Both the position numbers and the translations under genes were made by a program. A stretch of DNA of 64,000 bases, taken from positions 41,858,139 through 41,922,138 of the forward strand of contig NC_057719.1 in assembly GCF_004010195.1 (NCBI RefSeq), written 5' to 3'. A model generated the notes under the pieces. The model had not been told where the DNA came from. It saw nothing but the letters and a program-made list of their open reading frames with translations, and searched no databases. Shown here in pieces: positions 1-59,630 of this stretch. The DNA is from Chiloscyllium plagiosum (lineage: Eukaryota). Position 1 is the stretch's first letter. Every line of letters starts with the position of its first letter.

Positions 1-244
1 GAAAGGATACCAAACACCTTCTTCACTATCCTATCTATCTGTGACTCCACTTTCAAGGAGCTATGAACCTGCACTCCAAGTTTCTTTGTTCAGCAACACT
101 CTCTCGGACCTTACCATTAAGTGTATAAATCCTGCTAAGATTTGCTTTCCCAAAATGCAGCACCTCACATTTATCTATATTAAACTCCATCTGCCACTCC
201 TCTGCCTATTGGCCCATCTGATCAAGATCCCATTGTAATCTGAG

Positions 245-558
245 TTAAAAATCACACAACATCAGGTTATAGTCCAACAGGTTTAATTGGAAGCACACTA
301 GCTTTCGGAGCGATGCTCCTTCATCAGGTGATTGTGGAGGGCTCGATCGTAACACAGAATTCATAGCAAAAAATTTGCAGTGTGATGTAACTGAAATTAT
401 ACATTGAAAAAATTGATTGTCTGTTAAGCCTTTCATCTGTTAGAATACAATGATAGTTTCACTTCTTTCATGTGTAAATCACAAAACCCTTTTTTTTAAA
501 GTTGCATTCTCGGGTTAGCTGTTAACAATGGTGATAGCTAGACAATATGTTGAAGGTG
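245..558 (-). mobile_element. Penelope-like terminal-repeat fragment inserted in the CR1 with a 12-bp TSD
   Basis: Direct repeat ttgtaatctgag at 233-244 and 559-570 flanks it; contains a hammerhead core on the minus strand. Confidence 0.7.
296..330 (-). ncRNA. Minimal type I hammerhead ribozyme motif
   Basis: Minus strand reads CAC-CUGAUGA-A-GGAGC-AUC-GCUCC-GAAA-GCUA-GUG: intact core boxes, 5-bp stem II, palindromic AGCU stem III, 3-bp helix I. Confidence 0.65.
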
Positions 559-3340: not shown

Positions 3341-5273
3341 TCATTACCTTAACTATTCTAAGGTATCTGTCATTGTATATCGTGGCTCATACTTTCTCTG
3401 TTGTGCATCAGGTTTTGAGGTGGTAGTGAAGACATTAAGAATGCTTCATATTCTTTATACTTGAATATTCATGCAAAAGATTAATGGCTATGCCATACTT
3501 ACTGCAGATTTAACAAGCAATAGTCCAAAATTGATTGCCAGCTGATTTCACATCCAAGATTTGATATAAAAAAAATGTGAATTCCAAATTAATTCCTATC
3601 ATGAGACAGCTCTAATATCTCATGCATGATGAACTTACAATGACACTTTCAAAATCTTTCACTTGAGTGCAATAAATTCTTCCAGAATTCCATTACATTT
3701 TCTGCTCATATATCAGTTCATTTCGTTTGAAATGACAGAATGCTTGGAAAGGTAGCATGTAGTGAGGAAAATATTATCAGCCTTCAAATGGCCATAGACA
3801 GAGCAGTGATATGGGCAGGCATGTGACATTTAATGCATAGAAGTGTGAACAGATATATTTTGGAAGGAAAGATTATGAGGCAATATGAACTAAATGACAA
3901 AATTTCAACGTGAGTTCAGAAACAGCTCACGATTCACAGACATAAATCTTTGAAGGTGGCAGAAAAGTTGATAAAATTGTTAAAACATATGGGATCCTTG
4001 GCTTTATAAATACTGCAGAAGGATATAAAAAAGTTAGTAAGATATGTTAACCCTTTGTCACTTGTTAGACCTCAGCAGATGGGCAGAGCTTTCTCAGTCA
4101 CTGAATGATGAGCAACAGCGAATCAATTGGAGAAATATAATGAGAACAGCAAAATTAGATTCTTGATGTTGAGTTGTGAATTCTGGATGAGTCAGCAATG
4201 TAAGAACCAGCAACGCAAGGAAAATCACTCAAGTACGGACAAAATGAATGGGTGCTCAGAAAGCAAGCTCGGAGCCCAAGATGCACCCTATTCCAATAAA
4301 TGAGATGGATGTGTGTCCTGTGTGCAAAGTGACTTAGCAACAGCATTGTAATGAAAGGTGTCAGTGTGCTCCATGAGAACACAAGAAATAGGAGCAGGAG
4401 TGGGCCATCTGGCCCAATGAGCCTGCTCTGCCATTTAACAAGATCATGGCTGATGTTTTTGTGGACTCAGCTCCACTCACACCTTTCACTGCAATGCTGT
4501 TGCTAAGCCACTTCGCACAAAAAAACACTCATCCACCCGCTCATCATAACCTTTAATTCCTTTACTGTTCAAAAATCTATTTATCTTTGCCTTAAAAACA
4601 TTCAATGAGGTAGCCTCAGCTGCTTCACTGGGCAGGGAATTCCACAGATTCACAACCGTCTGGGTGAAGAAGTTCCTTCTCAACTCAGTTCAAAATCTGC
4701 TCCCCCCTCATTTTGAGGCTTTGCTCACTAGTTCTAGTTTTACCTACCAGTGGAAATAACCTCCCTGCTTCTATCTTATCTATTTCCTTCATAATTTTAT
4801 TTCTTTCTATAAGATATCATTTATTCTTCTAAACTCCACCGAGTATAGTGCCAGTATACTCAATCTCTCCACATAAGCCAACCCTCTCAACTCCAGGATC
4901 AACCTAGTGTATCTTCTCTGCACCCACTTCAGTGCCAGTACATCCTCTCTCAAGCTACCAAAACTGTTCATAGTACTCCAAGTTGGCGTCACCAGCACCA
5001 TATACAGCTGCAGCGTAATCTCCTTATTTTAAAACTCCATCCCTCCAACATGATAATCCACTTCATTTATTACTTATCTGCTGCACCTGCAACCAACTTT
5101 TTGTGATTCATGCACAAGGACACCCAGGCCCCTCTGCACAGTAGCATGCTGCAATGTTTCACCATTTAAATAACAGTCCATTTTGCTATTATTCCTAACA
5201 AAGTGGATGACCACTCATTCGCCGACATTGTACCCCATCTGTCAGATCCTTGCCCATTCACTTAACATATCGT

Positions 5274-5500
5274 GGCGGCACGGTGGCACAGTGGTTAGCA
5301 CTGCTGCCTCACAGCGCCAGAGACCCGGGTTCNNNNNNNNNNNNNNNNNNNNNNNNNNNNNNNNNNNNNNNNNNNNNNNNNNNNNNNNNNNNNNNNNNNN
5401 NNNNNNNNNNNNNNNNNNNNNNNNNNNNNNNNNNNNNNCGGCGAGTCGGTGTGGACTTGTTGGGCCGAAGGGCCTGTTTCCACACTGTAAGTAATCTAAT
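5274..5500 (+). mobile_element. HE1-type tRNA-derived SINE spanning an assembly gap
   Basis: ggcggcacggtggcacagtggttagcactgctgcctcacagcgccagagacccgggttc head (A/B boxes) and gggccgaagggcctgtttccacactgtaagtaatctaatc tail. Confidence 0.88.
5333..5438. other. Assembly gap (106 N)
   Basis: Run of N. Confidence 1.
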
Positions 5501-8710: not shown

Positions 8711-11354
8711 ACAAAATTACAACCAGTTTGGAAGAAAAGTGATTTAGCTTTCACAGTTGACTTATGATATGAGCGCTGAAAAATCTGCTGGTGTTATGTG
8801 GCACATTCTAGATACTTAAAATCCACCATACACTGTAGATATTATGTTAACCAACTCTAATTAGTCTTACTTTAATTCTGAATATTTGCTTTCCTCTACA
8901 TCTAGGATATTTAAAAAAAGTGAAAATATTTTCCTTCACCTCGCTGAGAATTATACAATGTAAGTAATATGGCATTTCATCCTTCAAGTTTCTGCAATGA
9001 TATATTTCTTTATATGTATTTTAGAACATTTAGGTTTATCTAATATCAACTCTAAAACTTTCATTCTCAGGTTTAAATTCCTCCTATGACCTCCCTTTGC
9101 CTATATTTGTAATCTCCTCCTGCTCTAACTCCGCGAGTTTGTCAGACTTTTGGTGATAGTACATTCAGTATCCAGCCTACCCTAAGATCTAAAATCCCCT
9201 TCCTCAATGATTGCTCTTCTCCACCACTCTCTCTCCTCTTCAAACTGCTCCTTAACTATCTTCTTTTACAAACTTTTTGTCAATTATTTTAATATCTCTT
9301 TTGTTGGCTCAAAATCCAGTTTATTTTAACATGTTACTGTGAAGAACTTTGGAATATCTAAGCATGTTAATTATGCTGTATAAATGCAATTTATTATTAC
9401 AATTAGTATTTGTCTGTAACTCTGTGAAAAGTGATCTGAAGAATCCATTGCTATAATCTGCTATATTCTGTTCATCTGTAATAGTCCAACTCAATTTTGG
9501 AGGCTTCATGCTTTCTTATGTGAGTTGAATTTCTTTGTCTAATACTTTCTTAAATTCTTAAGTAAGTATTCTTTGTACTTTATACCTTTCTTCCAATATT
9601 TAAATTTGAACACTGTTGTCTAGTATTTGTTATATATAGCCTTTTCAAATTGAAACATTTCCTTTCTTTGTCTTTCATAATCTTAAAATACCATATTTCA
9701 TTGTAAATTCAATTCCAGTCACAGGTTGGTTGGCTAAGGGGTAAATTACATATTCACAAAATAATTGGCTTACACTGTACAACTGTGTCACACTGACATT
9801 GCCTGACATTGTCCTTTGTATTTTACATATCTGGGTAAATCCTGAGCATGTAAGGTCACACTTGCATAGGTGGGAGCATATTTTTTGTATAATTCCTGCT
9901 TGTCAACATCAATCAGATCAGTTTTGTGAATAAGTAAGCCCTGTTAATATTCAAAACATATTTAAAAATCCTCCTTCCATATCCACTACTCAAAAGGAAA
10001 TTTACCAACAAAGTCATCTTTATATTTTTTCTCTATGGTAGTCTTCTAATTCCATTGAGTTTTGTCCAGCAAGTGGCACACAGAGGGAGGTAGATTATAT
10101 CCCTGTGGACGTTTATCTCAATATAAATTTAATTTAATGAGTTTAATGAATTTATTATGAATAAATAAAAGGCATTACTGATATTAAATTGTAACCTCCT
10201 CTATCTGGGATCACCATAACTGAAGTATGCTATTGGAGAAACCATGCAGAATATAATGTTAATGAAAAAACATACCATTTGGACATGTTTTTTAAGCTAG
10301 TTAAATTTTCTTTGCAGTTGGGAGGTAAATTAACTTGAAAAATTTCCATTATGGTGGCAGTGGAGTAGGGCTTCTGAATCCAGGGCTTGTCGCTCCATCC
10401 ACTTTCGTTTTTGTTTCTTTTCTCTTTCCTCTCTTCTCATTTTTTTCTATTTTTTGCCTCTTTTATGTTACTGACCATAAGAGCTTGGTTGCAGTGACAG
10501 CATCGGCAGTGGTGACTGGGCTCAGCAAGGACATGAGTGTGCACAGAGTTGGACTCAAGTGGGCCCACAGTCAGCCTCGAGTAGGCGCAGAGTGGACTTG
10601 AGCGAGCCCAGTATGGACAGAGTGTGCCCAGCATGGATTTAAGTAGGTCCAGCACAGACTTGAGTGGACTCAGCACAGACTCGAGTGGGCCCAGTGCAGA
10701 CATGAGTGGCCCAACTCAGATCCGAGTGGGCCCAGCCCGGATTTGAGTGGGCCCAGCTCAGACCCGAATCGGCCCAGTGCAAACTTGAGTGGGCCCAGCG
10801 TGGATTCAAATGGCCTAGTGCATGTACGAGTGGGTCCAGCTTGGACATGAGTGGGCCCACCTTGGACACAAGTGGGCCCAGCGTGGACATGAGTGGGCCC
10901 AGTGTGGATTCAAGTGAGCCCATTGTGGTCACGATTGGGTCCAGTGTGGGTTCGAGTGGGCCCAACGTGGACACGAGTAGGCCCAACGTGGATTCAATTG
11001 GGCCTAGTGTGGACTTGAGTGGGCCCAGCATGGACTTGAGTGGGCCCAGCGTGGATTCAAGTGAGCCCATTGTGGCCATGAGTGGGCCCAGCATGGGTTC
11101 GAGTCAGCCCAGTGTGGGCATGGGGTGGGCCCAATGTGGACACTCAAGTGGGCCCAGCACAGACTCGAGTGGGCCCAACGTGGACTTCAGTGAGCCCAGC
11201 ACCAACTCAAATGTGCCCAGCATGGGCTTGAGTGGGCCCAGCGTGGATTTGAGTGGGCCCAGTGTGGACCTGAGTGAGCCCAATGAGGATTCAAGTGAGC
11301 TGGAAATGTGTTGCTGGAAAAGCGCAGCAGGTCAGGCAGCATCCAGGGAACAGG

Positions 11355-11394
11355 AGAATCGACGTTTCGGGCATAAGCCCTTCTTCAGGAATCT
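11355..11394 (-). ncRNA. Minimal hammerhead ribozyme motif (minus-strand copy)
   Basis: AGAUUC-CUGAAGA-A-GGGC-UUAU-GCCC-GAAA-CGUC-GAUUCU; helix I pairs 5 of 6 with one U-U mismatch; palindromic ACGU stem III. Confidence 0.65.
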
Positions 11395-11426
11395 GAAGAA
11401 GGGCTTATGCCCGAAACGTCGATTCT
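11387..11426 (+). ncRNA. Minimal hammerhead ribozyme motif (plus-strand copy)
   Basis: CUGAAGA 11393-11399, stem II GGGC/GCCC, GAAA 11413-11416, CGUC; helix I is poorly paired in this orientation. Confidence 0.5.
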
Positions 11427-12109
11427 CCTGTTCCCTGGATGCTGCCTGACCTGCTGCGCTTTTCCAGCAACACATTTCCAGCTCTGATCTCCAGCATCTG
11501 CAGACCTCACTTTCTCCTCGAGGATTCAAGTGAGCCCAACGTGGACTTGAATGGGCCCTGTGTGGGTCCTGAGCTCCCAATGTGGACATGAGTGGGTCCA
11601 GCATGGACTCGATTGGATTTAGCACAGACTCGAGTGGGCCCAGCGTGGATTCAATGGGCCTACTGTGGACACGAGTGGGCCCAGTGTGGACTTGAGTTGG
11701 CCCAGCGTGGATTTGAGTGAGCCCAGTGTGGACACAAGTGGGCCCAGCGTGGATTTGAGTGAGCCCAGTGTGGACACAAGTGGGCCCACTGTGGGTTCGA
11801 GTGACCCTAGTGTGGGCACAAGTGGGCCCAAGCGATAATTAGAATTTCCTTTCTAATTATCTACATTGAAGTCAAGTCGGAATAAACAGAACCAATATTT
11901 ACATCTTGGTTTATTTATCCTAATTATATTTAATGTGGAGCTTCTGTTACTATCAAAGTTAGCAGTAGTTTTGCAAAGTCTGATTCGAATTAATCATTCT
12001 AATTTCCTTACATGTTCTTTTCAGCAAAGTACTAGAGTCCAGATGGCTGTGTTGCACACTTCGTGCTAGACTTTGTGACATTTGGTCAGAGCTGAAAAGG
12101 ATCTTACAA

Positions 12110-14340
12110 TAAGGTTCATAGAAGGTTATCGAGACAGTTTCTTAGAAACAGCGTATTCTGGTGTCTACCAGAGAGCAGAGTACATGGTATTATGTAATGA
12201 AGTAGGATTAATTAATGACCCAATAGTTCGGGCAACCTAGGTTGCACTAAGCATAATATGATTGATTTTACATTCAGTTTGAGGGTAGAAGAGTGGATCC
12301 AAGGCTAGTATTTTCAATGAAGGCATGAAAGCAGAGCTAGCTAAAGTGAACCGTCAAATGAGGTTAAGGGATAAGTAAATAGAGATGCAGAGACAGGATT
12401 TCAGGGGATATTCCAGAGCATTCAGGATAGATACATTCCAATAATAAAGAAAGAATCAAAGCAGAGAACCCATCATACATGTCAACAGATAAAAATTAAA
12501 GGCAGTGTCAAACTTAAAGAGAATGTATATAGTTACACCAAGGTGGCTGGCAGCTTAGAAGATTATACAAAATATAAAAACAGCAAAGAATGAGTAAAAT
12601 ATTTATAAGGAGAGAACAACTGGAGTATGAGAGAAAGCTAGTTAGAAATGTAGAAACAGATAGTAATAATTTCTCCAGATATTTTATAAAGAAAAGGATT
12701 AATGAAATCAATTCAGAAGTCGAGCCATATTGAACTCAAAACTTAATGTTCACCCAATTCTCTTTCCATAGACACTGCCAGTTCTGATGAGCTTCCATAA
12801 CCTTTTGATTTTTATTCTACATTTCCAGAATCCATAGCACTTTTGTTTTTATTTAACAAAGTGAGTATTGGTCATTTTGAAAATGAGCCTGAGGAAATAA
12901 CAATGGAAAATAAGGAGGTGGTAGATGAATTGAACAATTATCTTGCTTTTTGAGGTAATGTTCTAGAAATTGTTGTAAATCAAGAAGTGGAAGTGAGGGA
13001 CTATAGAAAGTTAAAGTCATCAGGGAAGTGGTACTGGGCAAATCGTTGAAGTTGTAGGATGACAAATTCCTGGGTCATGATGAATTTCATCCTAGAATCT
13101 TAAAAGAAGTACAGAAATTGCTGGAGACACTCAGCAGGTCAGGCACTATCTGTGGTAAGTAAGTTAAAATTAATGTTTTGAGTCCAGTTTCTTCAGAATT
13201 CTATTATGTGGAAAATGTGAAATAGTCCATTTTGGCAGGTTTCATAGAAAATTGCATACTATCTAAATGGTGACAGATTGTGGGGCTCTGAGCTGTAAAA
13301 CAACATGTATGATCTAGTGCAAGAATCATAAAATGCAAGTTTTCTGGTACAGAAAGTAATAAATAAAGCTAACAGAATGTTATTATTGACTGTGATGGGA
13401 ATTGAATACAAAAGAAGCGTGGTTATACTTCAATTATGCATGGCACTGGTGAAATCATATCAGGAGTAATATGTACAATATTAACTTCACTCTCTAAGGA
13501 AGGAAGTAAATGAGTTAGAACAATTCAGAGAAAGGTTACCAAACTTCTACCTGAATAAATGTATAAGGACCTTATAAGGAAAGGTCAGACGGGCTAGGCC
13601 TGCGATTGCTGGAGCTAAGACGTTTAACATATGACTTAATTGAAACATTTCCTTTTCTGGGAGAATCCCAAACTAAGGGTCACTGTTTAAAAATGATGTG
13701 GCCCCCATTTAAGACAAAAATGAGGAGAAACTTTTTCTCACAGATGGTTGTCAGTATTTTAAACTCTCTCCAAAGCAGAATGCAAGCAGAGGTTTTGAAT
13801 ATTTTAAGGCAGAAGTTAGATAGATTATTGATAAAGATGATCCTACTGAATCGTTACAGAAACAGTTTACGAGAATGTTTCTTGGTTTGGAAAGTATTAC
13901 CTGAGTAGAGATTGGAAAAATTTGGTTTCTTTTCACTGGAACATTGAAGGATGAGGGGGGACCTGATAGAAGTTTACAAAATTACAACAGACATGGATAG
14001 AATGGACAGTCAGAGTCTTTTCCCTGAGGGAAGAAGTGTCCATTACTAGGGAACATAGTTTTAAGGTAAAAGGAGGTAAGTTGAAAGGAGATGTGAGAGG
14101 AAGATTTTTTACACACAGGATGGTAAGTGCCTGAATGCACTTCCATGGGAGGCGGTGGAGGTAAATGCAATCACAATGTTTAAGAGGCATTCTGACAGAT
14201 ATATGAATAGGCACAGAATAGGGAGAATGCAGAATGCACAGAGGCAAAAGGCTTTTAGTTTAGAAAGGCAATGTGTGTTAGCATAGTCTTGGTGGGTGGG
14301 CCAAAAGGCCTGTTCCTGTGCAGTGTTGTTCTTTGTTCAT
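12110..14340 (+). mobile_element. Cluster of old decayed CR1 fragments with small Penelope-like inserts
   Basis: ORF 13606..13908 (RRLTYDLIETF...RRNFFSQMVV), CR1 3' end at about 13935-14340, inserts at about 12710-12850 and 13110-13200. Confidence 0.7.
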
Positions 14341-18080: not shown

Positions 18081-20565
18081 TAGCATCTAAAAGGAAGGTA
18101 CCTGCTTTGTTCTGAACCCCTTCCCATTCCAGACCCATGTCAGTCATAAAGCAATGCTTTGCTCCTCCCCCAGCACCCTTGCAAGTTTCACAAGTAGTTT
18201 GACATTTTTACACCTCTATGAGTTACCTTCTGCAGCACTGAAATGGCAATGTTAGATTTGCCAGCACAAATGACATGGTGCAAATACTCTTTAATCAGTA
18301 TTTGATGCCTGAGCACATTCAAACAGCATGCATTGCAAATAGGTAAAGGAATGCTTGCAATTAAATATAGCAACAGTCCTAGTGTGCAAGAGATGTGGAT
18401 TCCATGCTTTCACCATCAAACTGACACTGACTCCACTCACCCTTGAGAAGGTACCAGCCATTTTCCACTTGTATTTAGCATCAAGAGAAGCACAAGTGGT
18501 GACAGTGAAGGCAGCTCATGGTGGACACGCTCAGCTCTGCTTGGTCACCATGCTCTTCCTCAGATCCCCTGTGTCTTCCTTTACCTCACAGTATCCTGAT
18601 AATCTGTTTCTACCTATCCCTCACATGGGGATCCATTACATTGAACTTTGCATCTAACCGTCCTGCTTATCCTTGAACCCTGACATTACATCTTAATGAT
18701 GCCTACTTTGGTCCTCTATGCACACCTTGTGTAGGCCTCCATATTTGTCACTGTTGATAATCCACCTCTCATAGCTTACCATACCTTCCACACACATTGA
18801 GCTTCTCCCCCAGCACCAGGCTTGTTTCCATCTCTGTACATGCCTTGATTTTCTTTGTCCAGCCTTGACTGCTCCATCCCTTTTAGTTTTGATCTCCTGA
18901 TTGCACATACAGGACCCCCTTACACCTTCCTCAACATTTGACACATGACCCTCAGGTCTGTATTCATCCTAAATTTTTGACTGACTTCAACAGATAGAGA
19001 CAACTGACCAGACCCCTAACCACTGTATTTGCAGATCCCCAACTGACGTGACAGAATTCTCCTGAAAGAGAGTGCTGATTCTACAGGGCTGGCCATTACC
19101 AACTTCCCAGACTGTATTCAGAGGTATCCACTGACCATGCTGGGCACAAGTGGATGGATGACAGAGGCCAAGCCACTAGGTTGTATGCAGATTGTGCCCA
19201 TGACTGACAGTACAGGATCCCCTTACTGACAACAGCCTGCCTTGACTGGACTGTGGACCAGCCATTATGTACTTTCCAGCATGGCCATTCAATTGAATAA
19301 ATTCTCATTGTGCTTGTCACGCAGGCAGCTATCACATACTTTAGATATTGGATTGATGCCTGGGAGAGATGTATAGCAAGACTCTCACCCCATCCCTGCA
19401 CAGGAAAGTTCTCACTGACAAGTATGATAAGCAGACTGTCTATTTCTCTGCACAAAAGAACAGATCAATATTGCAGTACTGGTAGCCTTTGTCTCTGGCT
19501 GAAATGCTAATTTTTAACAATGATGGTACATCATAACAAGACAAGGTAAGGAAAGGTGTGGATTCTGACAGCATGCAGTAAAGCACCAGGTGAGCAAGTG
19601 CTAAGAGAGCAAATGAGCAGTCCTGAGATGCAGCATGGTCTAATCAGTGAGATGGATAACTCACTGTGTGTGCAATGTCCTTAAAGCTGCCTTTCAATTC
19701 TCTTTTGCTGTGCACCCGGTAATGCAGGTCTGTGCTGTCTAAGCGTCCTGAAAGTGGATTGGAGAAGTGCCAGGAGGATTGTGAGTGGTGGTGAATGTCA
19801 GATGTTAGTGTCCAAGGTCAAGGGATGCTCATGGCTGGTGCCCATGGATCATGCCTTGAGATCTTGTTTGGTATTGAATAACATGAGGGTCTCTGAAGCC
19901 AGTGGTGAGCTGAAGTCATCAGGGACTTGGTCCAACTTCCATATCAATTTTTCTCAACATTAGGCTTATTTGGCATGTTTGGTAAGATGGGAATCTGAAT
20001 ATTAATGAAGCAAGTTGTGGCCTGAATAAAGCGAGTAACAATCTATAATCCCCTTCAATTGACAACTCACCACTGCCTAATGAGAATCTAGGCAGCTCCT
20101 TGGATGCTGCCTGACCTGTTGCGCTTTTTCAGCAACACATTTTCAGCTCTAATGAGAATCTAGCCTTGCATCAGAAAAGATGCATCAAGTTGCTTCTGAA
20201 GTCAAGATAGGCCATGTCAGACTTGTCTTGCACTATTCTACCACAAGGCCTGCTATAGCCAAGGATGTTCAGAATCCCATATTTTACTTATTTGCAATAC
20301 TATTATAATTCATACCTAAAAATAGTTCATGATTAGATCTTTATCATCATACCATGCATTTCGAAGTAATATTTTGTCTAATAAGGTCCCCTTATTCGTG
20401 TCTCTCCACATTTACAATAAGTATGAAAGAGTTCTTAGTAAGTATGTAAAGTTAAAAGGATTCCATTTACTCATTCACTTTGAAAGTTTGTAGATTCTAT
20501 TGCTTCATTGTCAAATGCAAGTGCCAGTGAAAGGCAGATACTAAGGTATACTTACTAGTGGCTTG

Positions 20566-20844
20566 GAGATTGTGAGGACTGCAGATGCTGGAAAGTCAGA
20601 ATTGATAAAGTGTGGAGCTGGAAAAAGCACAGTAGGTCAAGCAGCATCAGAAGAGCAGGAGGGTTGACATTTTTGGCAGGACCCTTCATCAGGGCTGGGC
20701 AGGGGGAAGGGGGCTGAGAAATAAATGGGGGGTGGGGATGGGGAACGGTAGATGGAATGGCAATAGGTGGATGCAGGTAAGAGGTAAATAAGATTGGTCA
20801 GTGGGAAGGGTGGAGAAGATAAGTGGAAAGGGGGTTAGGTGACT
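20566..20844. mobile_element. Penelope-like fragment inserted at a kif28 exon-intron boundary
   Basis: gtgaggactgcagatgctgga...gcagcatc...cccttcatcag (same family as 11297-11519); flanked by a 13/15-identical direct repeat at 20551-20565 and 20845-20859. Confidence 0.65.
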
Positions 20845-20849
20845 CTTAC

Positions 20850-21016
20850 CAGTGGCCTGACCTCCTTCAGGTGAATTAGTCTCGCTCTCACTCCAATCAT
20901 GCTGAAATAAAATGTCTTGAGGGCCTTGGCAAACTCAGCATCCCAGCTGGGAAATGGGGACTTTTGATCAGATCGATCATTAGCGGATTTCATTGGACCT
21001 CCATTTGTAACTAATC
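20850..21016 (-). CDS. kif28: kif28 exon GLVTNGGPMKSANDRSDQKSPFPSWDAEFAKALKTFYFSMIGVRARLIHLKEVRPL
   Basis: caccag|GA acceptor after a 93-nt intron, CTG|gtaaga donor, 167 nt, phase 1 to 0; DAEFAxALKxFY motif. Confidence 0.88.
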
Positions 21017-21109
21017 CTGGTGAGAAGTTTGGGAGTTAGTTTGCCGGCAATGAATGATAGTTGAAACATATAACATTCAACAAAGCACAATAATAACAGT
21101 TTGTATTAC

Positions 21110-25272: not shown

Positions 25273-25852
25273 CTAAACGGGGAATGTACGTAAATCATAT
25301 CAGTTTTCCACAAATGCATCTTCTCTCAAGTGCTCACTTTTCAATTGAAACGAGTAAAAAGGAATGAGGTGACTTGGTTGGTTTTTGGAAAAATTATGCC
25401 CTGAAATCCTGGCTATAGGAGAACTTTTACAAAGTCTCTAATATAGTGATGAATATCTCCAGGTAGCAATGGTAATTCTTATATCAAAATATAAATATTC
25501 TGGATGTGTAGGGTTCCAAAATGCATGAAATATAAGCAACTCAAGCATGGTGAATACACAGACCTGTATACATTGCACAGTAATGAGATAGATCAGTCAG
25601 CTCAACAGGCCTTAGATACATTTGTACTGTACTTCACATGCGGGACCCTCCTCCACCTCTTTACCCCTAACTCCATATACATCATTTACTAATCCAACCT
25701 TTGTAAATTGCTTGATGTCTTACATTAATTTCTTTTCTCCTGGAATTCTTACTTATTGGCTCTGTCAATGTTATTGATCAGCATATTCAACAGCCTTTAA
25801 GTTTATGTGGCTCGGCAGGGATATATATGCTTGTGTATACTTTGGGAAGGGA

Positions 25853-26360
25853 GTATGTTTGCTTGCTGAGCTGGAAGGATCGTTTACAGATGTTTCATCA
25901 CCATACTAGGTAACATCATCAATGAGCCTCTGGTGAAGCACTGTTGTGATGGTCCAATTTCTATTATATGCTCAGGTTTCCTTGGGTTGGTGATGTCATT
26001 TCATGTGTTGATGATGTCATTTCCTGTTCTTTTTCTCAGAGGGTGATAGATAGGATCCAAATTGATGTGTTTGTTGTATGGATCCATTTGGACCTCATCT
26101 ATTACTCTCAGAGGTAAAGAAGGGGAAATGACATCACAGACACAGGAAATGACATCACCACAGGAAATGGCATCACCAACCCGAGGAAACCTAAACACAT
26201 AAATAGAAAGTGGGCCATACCACCAGTGCTTCACCGAAGGCTCACTGATAATGTTACCTAGTATGATGTTGAAATGTCTGAAAATGAACCTTCCAGCTCA
26301 GTGAGCAAACATACATCCATTATCTCAACCTGAGCTACAAATCTTCTCCAAACTTGCTAA
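25853..26360. mobile_element. Penelope-like element remnant with inverted terminal arms
   Basis: About 25853-26060 is the diverged reverse complement of about 26080-26313; both arms hold degenerate hammerhead cores. Confidence 0.65.
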
Positions 26361-31342: not shown

Positions 31343-33569
31343 CTTCAGAAAGATGAAAATGCACGATTATATTGGTACTGCATTAAATTACCTTTCTTTT
31401 AATCATTTTAGCCTATTTTTCCTCTGTCATTTTATGTTCTTGACACCACTCATCATTTCAAGGATGCAAATTAGGAAAGTAAACTTTTCCCAGGCCACCA
31501 AACGTCCAGTTCTCAAATTAACCTCAGAGAGTCATGGTATGGATTGAATACTGATGGTTTTACCTCTTTGTGGCAAATATTTATTTGCAATATGGGATAT
31601 TTCTTCATGTATTAAGTGTCTTTTGCAACTTTGGACACCCCAAAGAATTTTACATCTAACAAACTACTTCTGAAATGCAGATTCCACTGTAAATGAGAAA
31701 AGATAGCAGTCAATTTGCACACAGAAAGATCCAAAAACAAGTTGATATTCTGTATCATCTTGATTGAGGATAATCATTAATAAAGATCCGAGGAAAACAT
31801 TCCTCTTCTTCAAAAAGAGGGCACAAATTCAGTTCAACATCTCAACTGCAAAAGGCACCTTTGACAGCAGAGGGCTTGCTCACTACTAGACAAATGTACT
31901 CAGGGCTCAGCAGTGGAATTGAAACTCACAAAATTTCTAACCAGGTCAGAGTGCTACCAGACTCTGCAGAGCAATGTTTACTGCAACTAGAGTTGCACAT
32001 TTTCACACAGTATAGGCCACAACACTCACTACATTTTATTCTTTGGAGGTAATTTTAACCAGGGCCTTGTTGGTGTGTTTGATGTAAACATTCAAGACAT
32101 GCAAAACCGAAGCCAATCGATCCATTCTCAGGTTTAACAAAGGCAGGGAGAGGGGATAGCTGTCAATCTACTTTAATGACATGGATTGGCCACTTGTATA
32201 CTGTAACAAGGCTGTGAGCCTCTTTTACAAGTTTAACATTGACTGGCCTGTATTCCTTGGCAGCTCAAGGAAAGCAGGCACTGCTTCAGGAAGAGATATG
32301 TGCCCTTATTGAGCTGCTTGTGGACCTATAGGACTAGGTGGAGCCAATGTAGCCTGAGTATTAATCCCTTCAGAGCCATTGTCTTTTCAAACATTTTTGC
32401 TAAGCATTTTTTCCCTATTGTTATCCCATGATAGAGTCATTATCTGGAGGACCTTTAATCCCATGAATTTTCTTCAGAGAGGAACATCTCTCCTACTTCA
32501 GATAGTTACCACATAACATCATATAGGGATCTTCATTCTTATAAATGTCCATCATGGAAGATGGCAGCTGTGTTGAAACAAGTACAAGCCTGCTGACTGA
32601 GCCCTGGCTGTATACTTGGTAATGCTGAGTGTCCTCAGAGTATCCTTTCCTTTACAGTTTTTCCAAAGGGAAGCTGGAATAACTAGTTTTTTTTTTGTCA
32701 TACACTTGGAAATTGTTCGTGATTGTGGAATGCTGTCAGAGGTCTCAGTATGCATTCTTGATCGTCTCACGGGATTTCAGGTCTAGCCATTGTTCCACAT
32801 AGTACTGGCAAACGGTAGCACACTGTTGATCATTCTTTTGCTCTTGTCAATTTTTACTGAGCCTTCTTTAGGCTTGGTGGTGGTAATTTCTTCTTGGCCA
32901 CATGAAGTATTTCTTTTATGCCATTGTAAGTAATCTCCACAGATTTGTTTCTTCCTATTTCTCACCATGGTTCAACTTTCTCTGGAGTTGGATAGTTTAT
33001 GTAACACTGTATTGAATTCTTCAATCAATTTTTAGATTGTATATTATATTCGTATTATTGACTGTTATGTGGCAATCCATCAATTTCATGCTTTGAAAAT
33101 CTGTTTACTTGTAATAATCTATCTCTGGTTTGCTCATTAGAGTTTCCCATTTTTTATTAGTGTTTTCCACCTTTTAAATAATCAAAATAGTGGCTACCAT
33201 TTATCCTAATATTTCAATAAAAGTAAAATACTGTGAATGTTGGAAATCTAACCCAAACACAGTGAATGCTGGAGAAACTCAGCAGGTCTACAAGTATCAG
33301 TAAGTAAAATAGTTAATGTTTTGAGTCCAGTATGACTCTTCTTCAGAAATACGGTTTCAACCTAAATACATTCTGAGGCCTTCCTAATCCTGGTCTAAAC
33401 TTATCCCTGGTCTAAAGTTCTTTTCTGACCTTTTTACTGTTTCTTGCAGCTGCACCTGCTATAAATTAATGATGATGGTGATGACACTGTTTTTGTACTC
33501 CCTTGGTCTTCACAATATTTATCATAAAGTTACTCCTGGCTCCTTCAGGCATCTCTACCTTTATATCCT

Positions 33570-46979: not shown

Positions 46980-47065
46980 TAGGCGAAAGTGAGGACTGCA
47001 GATGCTGGAGATCAGAGTCTAGATTAGAGTGGTGCTGGAAAAGCACAGCAGGGCAGGCAGCATCC
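46980..47065. mobile_element. Short Penelope-like terminal fragment
   Basis: aaagtgaggactgcagatgctggagatcagag...ggcagcatcc, same family as 11297-11519. Confidence 0.6.
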
Positions 47066-57210: not shown

Positions 57211-58709
57211 GATCCTATTTTTTACCTGTATAGCTACCCCGGAAATGTAGAACAGATTAAAACCATGACTAACAGCTGTGTAACAAAACAACTGACTCCT
57301 TTAACTCCTCCAAGACCCCTTGACAACTTTACCCTGACCCCTTGACTCCTAGATCCAGCCTGACTAGACCGCACTACATCGTTTCCTTCTGACTTCCTCA
57401 TTCTCAATACTGGAAACTAATATCTAAGAAAAAAATATTGAATCTGGCCTACTAGTATGTGAGAAGAGAAACGATTTCAATGTAGATCATAAATTAAAAC
57501 TGGAAATTTGAATAAGTAAACTGTCTGACAAGACCAAGTAAAGGCAATGGGAAAAGATGAAATGGGGAATCATGAATCAGGAATAGTAATTCACACCGTA
57601 AAGCAGCTAAGCATGTTTTGTCTAATAATGAGATAAATACAAACCTTTACATCCCAGAGTGTTGTCATAAAAATAATGCAATAATGTATACAGTATGGCT
57701 GGCAATCTGCCAACACAAGACTTTTATGAATACAATTGTACACAAGAATCTACCAAACTATAAAGACAGAGACAACAAGTGTGTCCCAACATAGTGTAAG
57801 TTAAATGTTCATTCATTCTTTTCTACTCTATACTCACACAAACTCATGGGAGGAACAAAATCATAGAAAACCCTAAAGTCGCTTTAGGAAAGAAATGTGT
57901 CAAGTTTCTTTCAGATCCAGTTCTGACCAAACAAGCCCTGAGTAACAAAATAGCAATATTACTTTGTTTTCTGAAGAAAGTGTCACTAAAAACCTTAATT
58001 CTATTTTCCATTCAAAGATACTGCTAGACCTGCTAAGTTTCTTCAGTACTTTATTTTATTAATGGCATACTAACTTTGCACTTCTAAGAACTCACCAGCT
58101 CCTGTAATGGTAACATCTGTGCACCTAAGGTAGAATGCTGCTGCCAATCCTTCTTCCAGGGCGCATCTAAGATTTCTAGCATTTTGTGCAGAAGGATGAG
58201 CAATTGCAGTGCTTGTCTTCAAGAAGAAGATAAGGAATGTTCCATAGTACTATATACCTGTACAGACTATATTATACTGATGAAAACATGAGGAGCAGAA
58301 GACATGACTCTCTCCCATTACAACTTTTCTGAACACCTCAAGACTTTTCAAGACTCCTCAAGATTGCTCAACACTGACAAGTGGCTGTGTTACATATCAG
58401 AATCTATGAAGTTTCAGCTGGGCTCCTAGGTTAAGTATTTCAGATCCATTATCGAAGATAATGCTCCTTTACCAAAATGTTTGCAGTAAATCTACCCTCC
58501 CTAAATGTAGCAATCTATTCCTGAGGTTGATGACTGTCTTTAAAATGTAAGATTCCTAACAGCTAAACTATTTCCTTTACCCTATCTTCCTCCCTGAATT
58601 ATCCTGTTTAAATGTGGGTGGTTTGATCTTTTCATTATTTCATTACCTCTACAATTTCTCCCAGTAATTTATGTTTTCCTAATGTTAAATAGCCCTTGCC
58701 CACAAAACT

Positions 58710-59630
58710 TAGAGTCATAGAGTCACAGAGATGTACAGCATGGAAACAGACCCTTTGGTCCAACCCGTCCATGTCGACCAGATATCCCGACCCAATCTAT
58801 TCCCACCTGCCAACACCCGGCCCGTATCCCTCCAAACCCTTCCTATTCATATACCCATCCAAATGCCTCTTAAATGTTGCAATTGTACCAGCCTCGACCA
58901 CTTCCTCTGGCAGCTCATTCCTTACACGTACCACCCTCTATGTGAAAAAGATGCCCCTTAGGTGTCTTTTATATCTTTCCCCTCTCACCCTAAACCTATG
59001 CCCTCTCGTTCTGGACTACCCAAACCCAGGGATAAGACTTTGTCTATTTACCCTATCCATGCTGCTCATAATCTTGTAAACCTCTATAAGGTCACCCCTC
59101 AGCCTCCGACGCTCCAGAGAACACAGCCCCAGTCCAAACCCTTCCTATTCATATACCCATCCAAATGCCTCTTAAATGTTGCAATTGTACCAGCCTTGAC
59201 CACTTCCTCTGGCAGCTCATTCCATACAGGTACCACCCTCTATGTGAAAAAGATGCCCCTTAGGTGTCTTTTATATCTTTCCCCTCTCACCCTAAACCTA
59301 TGCCCTCGAGTTCTGGACTACCCAACCCCAGGGATAAGACTTTGTCTATTTACCCTATCTATGCCCCTCATAATCTTGTAAACCTCTATAAGGTCACCCC
59401 TCAGCCTCCGACGCTCCAGAGAACACAGCCCCAGCCTGTTCAACCTCTACCGATAGCTCAAATCCTCCAACCTTGGCAACATCTTTGTAAATCTTTTCTG
59501 AACCTTTTTAAGTTTCACAACATCTTTCCAATAGGAAGGAGACCAGAATTCCACGCAATATTCCCACAGTGGCCTAACCAATGTCCTGTACAGCCGTAAC
59601 ATGACCTCCCAACTTCTGTATTCAATACTC
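58710..59630 (-). mobile_element. CR1/HER1 3' fragment containing a 302-bp tandem duplication
   Basis: Reverse of the 2660-3340 family; unit starts tccaaacccttcc at 58831 and 59133. Confidence 0.9.

Follow-up and report, generated by a model that had tools for sequence, protein, structure and literature searches.

The palindromic insert at 11297–11519 of the window, by which we mean the whole 64,000-nucleotide stretch of Chiloscyllium plagiosum DNA analysed here, is very probably the dead-on-arrival end of an endonuclease-bearing (EN+) Penelope-like retroelement (PLE), laid out as an inverted truncated copy plus a one-sided tail. The putative PLE membership is grounded in architecture and motif. 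The inverted truncated copy, the one-sided tail and the target-site duplication (TSD) together support the origin from a PLE terminal repeat with a minimal type I hammerhead, which a previous sequence-only reading of this DNA had proposed. The features are collected in Table 1.

Table 1. Features of the insert, its target array and the neighbouring host gene (positions in the window).
Feature	Position	Strand	Remarks
21-nt GC-rich minisatellite, left part	10595..11284	.	target array; units ~70% alike
TSD, left copy, 16 nt	11285..11300	+	11297-11300 also complement the putative element at its tail-start terminus
Inverted, tail-less, 5'-truncated copy of the putative PLE end	11297..11392	-	loop 11389-11392 included as native sequence
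Minimal type I hammerhead core	11361..11388	-	C17 at 11361; native stem I weak
Forward 5'-truncated copy	11393..11484	+	begins at hammerhead C3; blunt join to inverted copy
Minimal hammerhead core	11393..11420	+	C17 at 11420; native stem I 5' strand absent
One-sided tail of the putative PLE, 34-35 nt	11485..11519	+	finishes at the outer terminus of the family
TSD, right copy, 16 nt	11520..11535	+	
21-nt minisatellite, right part	11536..11830	.	orientation and phase as in the left part
Most downstream KIF28 coding exon in the window	20850..21017	-	context

Structure of the insert and its target site

The two arms, 11297–11388 and 11393–11484, are exact reverse complements of each other over 92 bp (100%) and are separated by a 4-nt spacer, just as the sequence-only reading had described them. 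The fold of the insert region has a calculated energy of −213.8 kcal mol−1, which corresponds to z = −25 against 200 shuffles. On each strand the sequence CUGAAGA-A-GGGC(UUAU)GCCC-GAAA-CG-UC is present, and both this core and the cut positions previously assigned to it are confirmed, with C17 located as given in the table. An unpaired tail of 34–35 nt (11485–11519), which the previous reading does not mention, is found on the right side only; its final base may be non-templated.

The nature of the spacer can be deduced from other copies of the element. Behind 11392, the loose ends in all three of the DNA runs described below run on with GAGGAAAGTGTG, and the 4-nt loop is therefore native sequence of the inverted arm. 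This means that the forward arm begins exactly at C3 of the hammerhead and that the junction is blunt. The plus-strand core is severed exactly at this nucleotide and is without the 5' strand of its native stem I. The arrangement is thus one of two antisense arms facing each other. One of them sets out from the start of the tail and the other from its end, and their facing ends, which lie 4 nt apart immediately 5' of the hammerhead core or at it, are bluntly joined. The first four nucleotides of the left arm, GAGC, are at the same time the final four of the left TSD copy.

As to the target, 11285–11300 is identical to 11520–11535 over 16 nt. Within 10500–11830 the exact 16-mer is found in just these two places, and two further array units match it with one mismatch. 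Deletion of the insert together with one 16-nt copy yields an unbroken run of 21-nt units, and since the 21-nt phase is restored in this way, the repeat is a real duplication and not a pair of array units. The same restoration of phase bears out the earlier description of an insertion into a minisatellite with an intact 16-nt TSD. The stagger of the target cut is 16 nt, and the bottom-strand nick sits before ATT, which is not the case for the top-strand nick.

Some long open reading frames extend over the minisatellite, and a coding role for them was considered and rejected, as the frame is broken by units that measure 20, 22 and 23 nt. Elsewhere in the window, at 26 kb, there is a second palindrome. 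One search with its 42-aa frame gave no match, another led to two repetitive proteins without a reverse transcriptase or endonuclease domain, and it was likewise rejected.

Family assignment and other copies

The hammerhead motifs of the insert have the features of the minimal hammerhead (min-HHR) consensus as given in the excerpted part of PMC4209133, namely the core, the extra base after A9, the G–C closing pair and the palindromic 15.2–16.2. The features of EN+ PLE insertions are present as well, that is, a tail of 30–40 nt on one side only, an adjacent head-to-head inverted 5'-truncated copy, and a TSD. The Rfam hammerhead models, to which the sequence-only reading had looked for confirmation, gave no match: there was no hammerhead among 17 matches, and then none in one match, at E ≤ 10. 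The hammerhead call rests therefore on the published min-HHR consensus. The Rfam miRNA matches were all far below the gathering score and represent a generic hairpin signal.

Searches with the DNA pattern of the element returned 0 loci in viral contigs and 0 in metagenomes. With a shorter pattern, 17 loci were obtained in the metagenomes, but all 17 match over just 20–26 nt and were dismissed as chance. For the 41-codon open frame that crosses the forward arm and the tail, there were three protein candidates, none of them at E ≤ 0.01, and no Pfam family; a crude regular expression found no GIY-YIG-like motif in the window. These searches of viral contigs, metagenomes, proteins and the window thus yielded no ORF for reverse transcriptase and GIY-YIG endonuclease joined to the terminal repeat, the association that defines the class.

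To view the family as a whole, three public DNA runs (X1, X6 and X7) were aligned to 11100–11750 at 90% likeness. The matching contigs amount to 62,643 of 16.5 million for X1, 68,884 of 25.8 million for X6 and 54,728 of 21.2 million for X7, with the depth concentrated on the insert, and the element family is thus very abundant in the three runs. From the raw RNA run X22, 0 of 8.3 million reads aligned, a figure to which no weight is given; shares of 0.08–0.20 in organisms B–D are likewise left aside. The rows read from the DNA runs number 15 for joints (of 651), 12 for inserted letters (of 600) and 18 for loose ends (of 1,061). As the reference is biased towards joints near 11389–11392, the joint rows give no frequencies.

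Among the loose ends listed, long AT-rich ones lie behind 11517–11519 in all three runs. In X1, they also occur before 11304, shortly after the tail start, while in X6 and X7 just short loose ends, before 11311, are found in that part (all among the rows listed). From the loose ends at these two places it follows that the family possesses a pair of termini, separated by about the length of one tail. The head-to-head joints in other copies have variable centres, the forward piece beginning anywhere from 11397 to 11489 in the 15 listed of 651; in 8 of these 15 it starts at 11474–11489 and comprises hardly more than the tail. Two whole cores are kept in none of the 15 listed of 651, and copies that keep them would not show as skips.

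No difference listed from the DNA runs exceeds 69% of depth, which means that, among these rows, the present copy is without a private substitution. At 11435 and 11478, the letter present in both arms is the minority one, the other letter making up 56–69% of depth. That the minority letters are common to both arms fits with one source for the two, or with later homogenisation.

Three other copies in the window are long enough to align. They are single-armed and have differing 5' ends; the one at 20095–20153 ends at the inner terminus (tail start) and has a 15-nt TSD, and those at 46981–47065 and 20565–20692 both end at the outer terminus (tail end). The 20.1-kb copy was also considered as a second mini-hairpin, an idea that was dropped as there are just ca 3 extra bases. 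Two further candidate signals were set aside. For a pile-up at the cleavage sites, 1 of the 12 inserted-letter rows listed resumes at 11421 and another at 11361, which may be chance. For a 5'-truncation hot spot at the hammerhead, the reference ends there and permits no inference. A joint corresponding to the empty site is absent among the 15 listed of 651.

Formation of the head-to-head pair

For the way in which the insert arose, a mechanism with two primers and two nicks is in our judgement evenly poised between holding and failing. It would be a single event, in which each nick primes a cDNA on the same RNA or on the same source. The top-strand nick would prime at the tail start, by way of the 4-nt complementarity, and the bottom-strand nick, located before ATT, would prime at the tail end, after which host repair would join the two cDNA ends. 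The hammerheads would then be passengers of the terminal repeat, both of them retained only because both cDNAs happened to extend that far. Two independent cDNAs alone leave it unexplained that both ends fall within 4 nt.

It is here that the main rival enters. It keeps the same identity for the insert and proposes another way of building it, in which one cDNA, or the antisense template, primes itself or folds back and so copies the second arm. The identity of the arms, minority alleles included, and the arm ends within 4 nt of each other speak for this possibility. In addition, Arkhipova et al. (2013) attribute the head-to-head repeats of PLEs, with their palindromic inverted junctions, to self-priming on an antisense template (excerpt of PMC3846280). 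Frangieh et al. (2024) leave the later steps of insertion unvalidated (excerpt of PMC11167929). Against fold-back, the present junction offers no self-complementary stretch from which priming could start, the arm to which the loop belongs is tail-less and could not have templated the tail of the other arm, and the two outer ends coincide with the two termini of the family. A fold-back origin of the second arm is for these reasons doubtful.

Much less probable is that the insert represents a SINE- or MITE-like non-autonomous hairpin of fixed length which moves as a palindromic unit. Such hairpin units have constant ends and a constant centre, and their inverted repeats adjoin the TSD on both sides. 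The very high copy number and the clean TSD would suit this description, but the other copies join at many centres (15 of 651 joints listed), the three other aligned copies of the window have a single arm and differ in their 5' ends, and the tail is one-sided, which sets one of the inverted repeats apart from the TSD. The short non-autonomous unit suggested in the sequence-only reading is thus probably not what is present here, the variable joints being as in 5'-truncated insertions.

Hairpin centre and target microhomology

A tentative and rather unlikely addition to the two-primer mechanism concerns the mirror point of the hairpin, which might be set by target microhomology, and not by self-priming or ribozyme cleavage. 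Past the centre, the element continues with GAGGA, a continuation taken from the loose-end consensus, and these are the first 5 nt of the TSD; AAT precedes both, giving an 8-nt identity across the nick. In the window, the 5-mer has a frequency of 1.3e-3 and the 8-mer one of 7e-5, and 0 of 80 internal arm points match the TSD start beyond 3 nt, for a match that was spotted after the fact at a single locus (n = 1). If the 127-nt forward copy is left out, what remains is an ordinary single insertion with 5-nt 5' microhomology.

In terms of mechanism, the template RNA or the first cDNA would pair with the 3' overhang of the target, whereby both cDNAs would be halted or captured at a single point. 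We found no report of microhomology between centre and target in the literature searched, which had most subscription journals and Repbase/Dfam outside its scope. Should the match between centre and overhang recur in a large number of shark copies, the symmetric-centre step could be tested from genome data alone.

Host gene and folding of the transcripts

The exon at 20850–21017 shows 100% identity with the kinesin KIF28P of Chiloscyllium plagiosum, and the search with it gave 12 matches among 16 candidates, all of them cartilaginous fishes by name. The KIF28P protein maps to exons that span the window from 60.7 kb down to 20.85 kb, and its last 55 residues lie outside. Because the final 55 codons are absent from the window, the insert is probably located in the last KIF28 coding intron, with transcription of the minus strand. 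The previous reading had envisaged transcription from either strand; a likely host transcript, that of KIF28, is available for the minus strand only.

The read-through RNA, most likely the KIF28 pre-mRNA, would form the 92-bp duplex with neither core folding. Forcing stem II together with a free core is calculated to be 41.5–46.5 kcal mol−1 worse than the hairpin on both strands, and the probability of stem II is ca 5e-15, likewise in transcripts that end 6 or 15 nt beyond the cut, in a thermodynamic model without protein-assisted refolding. Owing to the head-to-head order, the antisense arm is transcribed ahead of the core on both strands, and stem III, which is required for the dimer, is buried in the hairpin as well. 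Considered alone, the plus-strand motif is predicted to have its C3 captured by an off-register helix, and the minus-strand motif does not stand out from its shuffles in folding (z = −0.9). The native stem I of the minus core consists of C–G, U–A, a U·U mismatch and A–U.

According to this model, both hammerhead motifs are almost certainly locked in the hairpin rather than forming a switch. Of the earlier proposal that a transcript can fold either as hairpin or as ribozyme, one part stands, namely that the two folds exclude each other, but not the part in which the RNA chooses between them, as one always wins.

A functional RNA switch, or self-cleaving regulatory element, that alternates between hairpin and hammerhead in the KIF28 intron is accordingly a most improbable reading. 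It would make use of the two intact cores and of the probable site within a transcribed intron. Against it stand the 41–46 kcal mol−1 and the minute stem II population given above, the order of arm and core on both strands, and the plus core without its native stem I. Furthermore, metazoan min-HHRs do not cleave as monomers and cleave weakly as dimers (excerpt of PMC4209133), and the hammerhead of the anole element requires the PLE protein (excerpt of PMC11167929). With the motifs locked in the hairpin, the KIF28 pre-mRNA would contain a perfect 92-bp duplex, which we infer to be a likely substrate for editing or dicing.

Authenticity and age of the insertion

An assembly or library fold-back artefact, to which the perfect arm identity and the absence, among the contigs listed from the DNA runs, of one bridging the locus-specific junctions might point, is hardly credible, as it would mirror the flank, whereas beyond the unmirrored tail and the 16-nt duplication the array goes on with its orientation and phase unchanged, and as both ends of the insert fall on the termini of the family. 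The insertion is therefore taken as real.

Regarding its age, the arms of a palindrome can homogenise. There are 0 differences over 88–104 bp, which bounds the divergence at 2.8–3.3%. With the mutation rate of the epaulette shark, 7e-10 per base per generation (excerpt of PMC10587355), this bound corresponds to 20–24 million generations, or to 10–12 million at the upper confidence limit of the rate. Each arm retains four CpGs, with an observed-to-expected ratio of 0.61 vs 0.19 for the window, and these CpGs, together with the absent private changes, fit with a young copy. The recent insertion proposed in the sequence-only reading is thus compatible with the CpGs; the zero divergence of the arms, on which it had also been based, allows for ca 20 million generations and does not carry the argument.

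Comparison with known systems

The published systems are compared here as they are described in the excerpted parts of the cited papers. The head-to-head arrangement has been described previously for Penelope-type elements, and the shark insert adds one case. According to Arkhipova et al. (2013), adjacent inverted pLTRs with a 31-bp tail on one of them and TSDs of 8–10 bp are typical (PMC3846280), and Craig et al. (2021) describe an inverted 5'-truncated copy together with a 30–40-bp tail at one end as common in PLEs (PMC8557442). Like such EN+ PLE units (Pen2a_Av of Adineta vaga in PMC3846280; Fig. 2 of PMC8557442), the shark insert has a head-to-head inverted terminal copy and a TSD, as well as a tail of 30–40 nt on one side only and strong 5' truncation. 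Unlike Pen2a_Av, it is without an ORF or a direct pLTR pair and consists of just two stubs, of 127 nt and 92–96 nt. The TSD has 16 nt, compared with 8–10 nt in the rotifer cases, and the target is a GC-rich minisatellite, not AT-rich DNA.

The minimal hammerhead was defined by Cervera and De la Pena (2014), who found monomers uncleaved and dimer cleavage low, and who also reported dual min-HHRs on opposite strands, 100–700 bp apart (PMC4209133). The cores of the shark insert lie on opposite strands just 4 nt apart. Their stem II has 4 bp, vs 7–8 bp in the min-HHRs of S. mansoni, and the native stem I is weaker than the 4–5 bp of the latter; for the plus-strand core, stem I is non-native, unlike in the metazoan min-HHRs of that paper.

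Another class of small hammerhead elements to be considered is that of the retrozymes, which are defined as direct tandem units (bioRxiv 10.64898/2026.07.22.740005). Like the non-LTR retrozymes, the shark insert is non-coding, carries a type I hammerhead and appears to be PLE-derived. However, while the hammerheads of those retrozymes, for which abundant circular RNA is a further mark, occur in direct tandem and in the same orientation, the shark insert is a single inverted pair.

The two-primer mechanism is proposed by analogy with the anole PLE studied by Frangieh et al. (2024), PAc (Poseidon, Anolis carolinensis). Its protein nicks and extends both strands with a preference for ATT, reverse transcription sets out from two RNA sites, one on each side of the tail, and the hammerhead, whose activity is protein-dependent, is dispensable for insertion (PMC11167929). 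In the shark insert, too, two termini bracket the tail, both strands appear to have been primed, and one nick lies before ATT. The insert differs from PAc in its top-strand nick, which does not coincide with ATT and is complementary to the RNA over 4 nt, whereas in PAc the start takes place without homology. As one of very many stubs, the shark insert matters little by itself. It cleanly illustrates the published pattern of an inverted copy plus a tail, and its ends fit the two in vitro start sites of the lizard PLE.

Relatives and resemblances of the main insert

The main insert is very probably derived from the end of a Penelope-like element (PLE) with a minimal type I hammerhead, here called the main family. 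The short copy of this family (see the table for this and the other features) has a TSD of 15 nt and ca 3 additional bases at its 5' junction, which could be a tiny inverted piece. The older relative has a long upstream part that is pyrimidine-rich and that starts just behind the splice donor near 20848 of KIF28, the probable host gene, on the minus strand.

In the main family, a likeness of ca 10 nt was found between the end of the tail (11505-11519) and the bases that directly precede the hammerhead on its upstream side, where other copies continue beyond 11392, the last base of the 4-nt loop. The right junction of the main insert (11515-11524) constitutes a 10-nt palindrome.

Repeats and other features of the window
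Feature	Position	Strand	Remarks
Short main-family copy	20077-20163		Ends at the inner terminus (start of the family's tail)
Main-family relative	20565-20845	-	Older; hammerhead decayed
Second head-to-head palindrome	25845-26360		Older; family other than that of the main insert
Third hammerhead-bearing end	225-345	-	Core at 327
Further repeat	33225-33350, 13111-13198, 57968-58046, 12712-12746		Decayed copies
Minisatellite	10595-11830		21-nt units
Old palindrome	4306-4535		Arms ca 45 nt
Tandem duplication	58831-59434		302 nt, 97% identity; within a LINE-like repeat
Assembly gap	5333-5438		106 bases; within the inferred last KIF28 intron

Other repeats

The arms of the second palindrome are ca 176 nt long with an identity of 84%, and there is an extension on one side only. 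A hammerhead-like motif is located at 25922, in the minus arm, and a candidate TSD of 8 nt could be identified. The inner part resembles the end of a PLE endonuclease ORF; protein searches gave no confirmation of such an ORF end there. The old palindrome is split by a LINE-like repeat, of which the 3' end is present, and a search for a TSD at this palindrome found none.

In the third end, the hammerhead has a stem II of 5 bp, a stem I of 3 bp and a UA cut site. This end is present as a single copy within the window, and no TSD was found at it. The further repeat opens with a CUGAAGA-like box and has one motif in common with the main family.

Finally, the minisatellite is the only 21-nt array of its kind in the window. 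Its depth in the public DNA sequencing runs is 400-1,400 for some units, compared to 4-25 for others, and related arrays are therefore probably present elsewhere in the genome.
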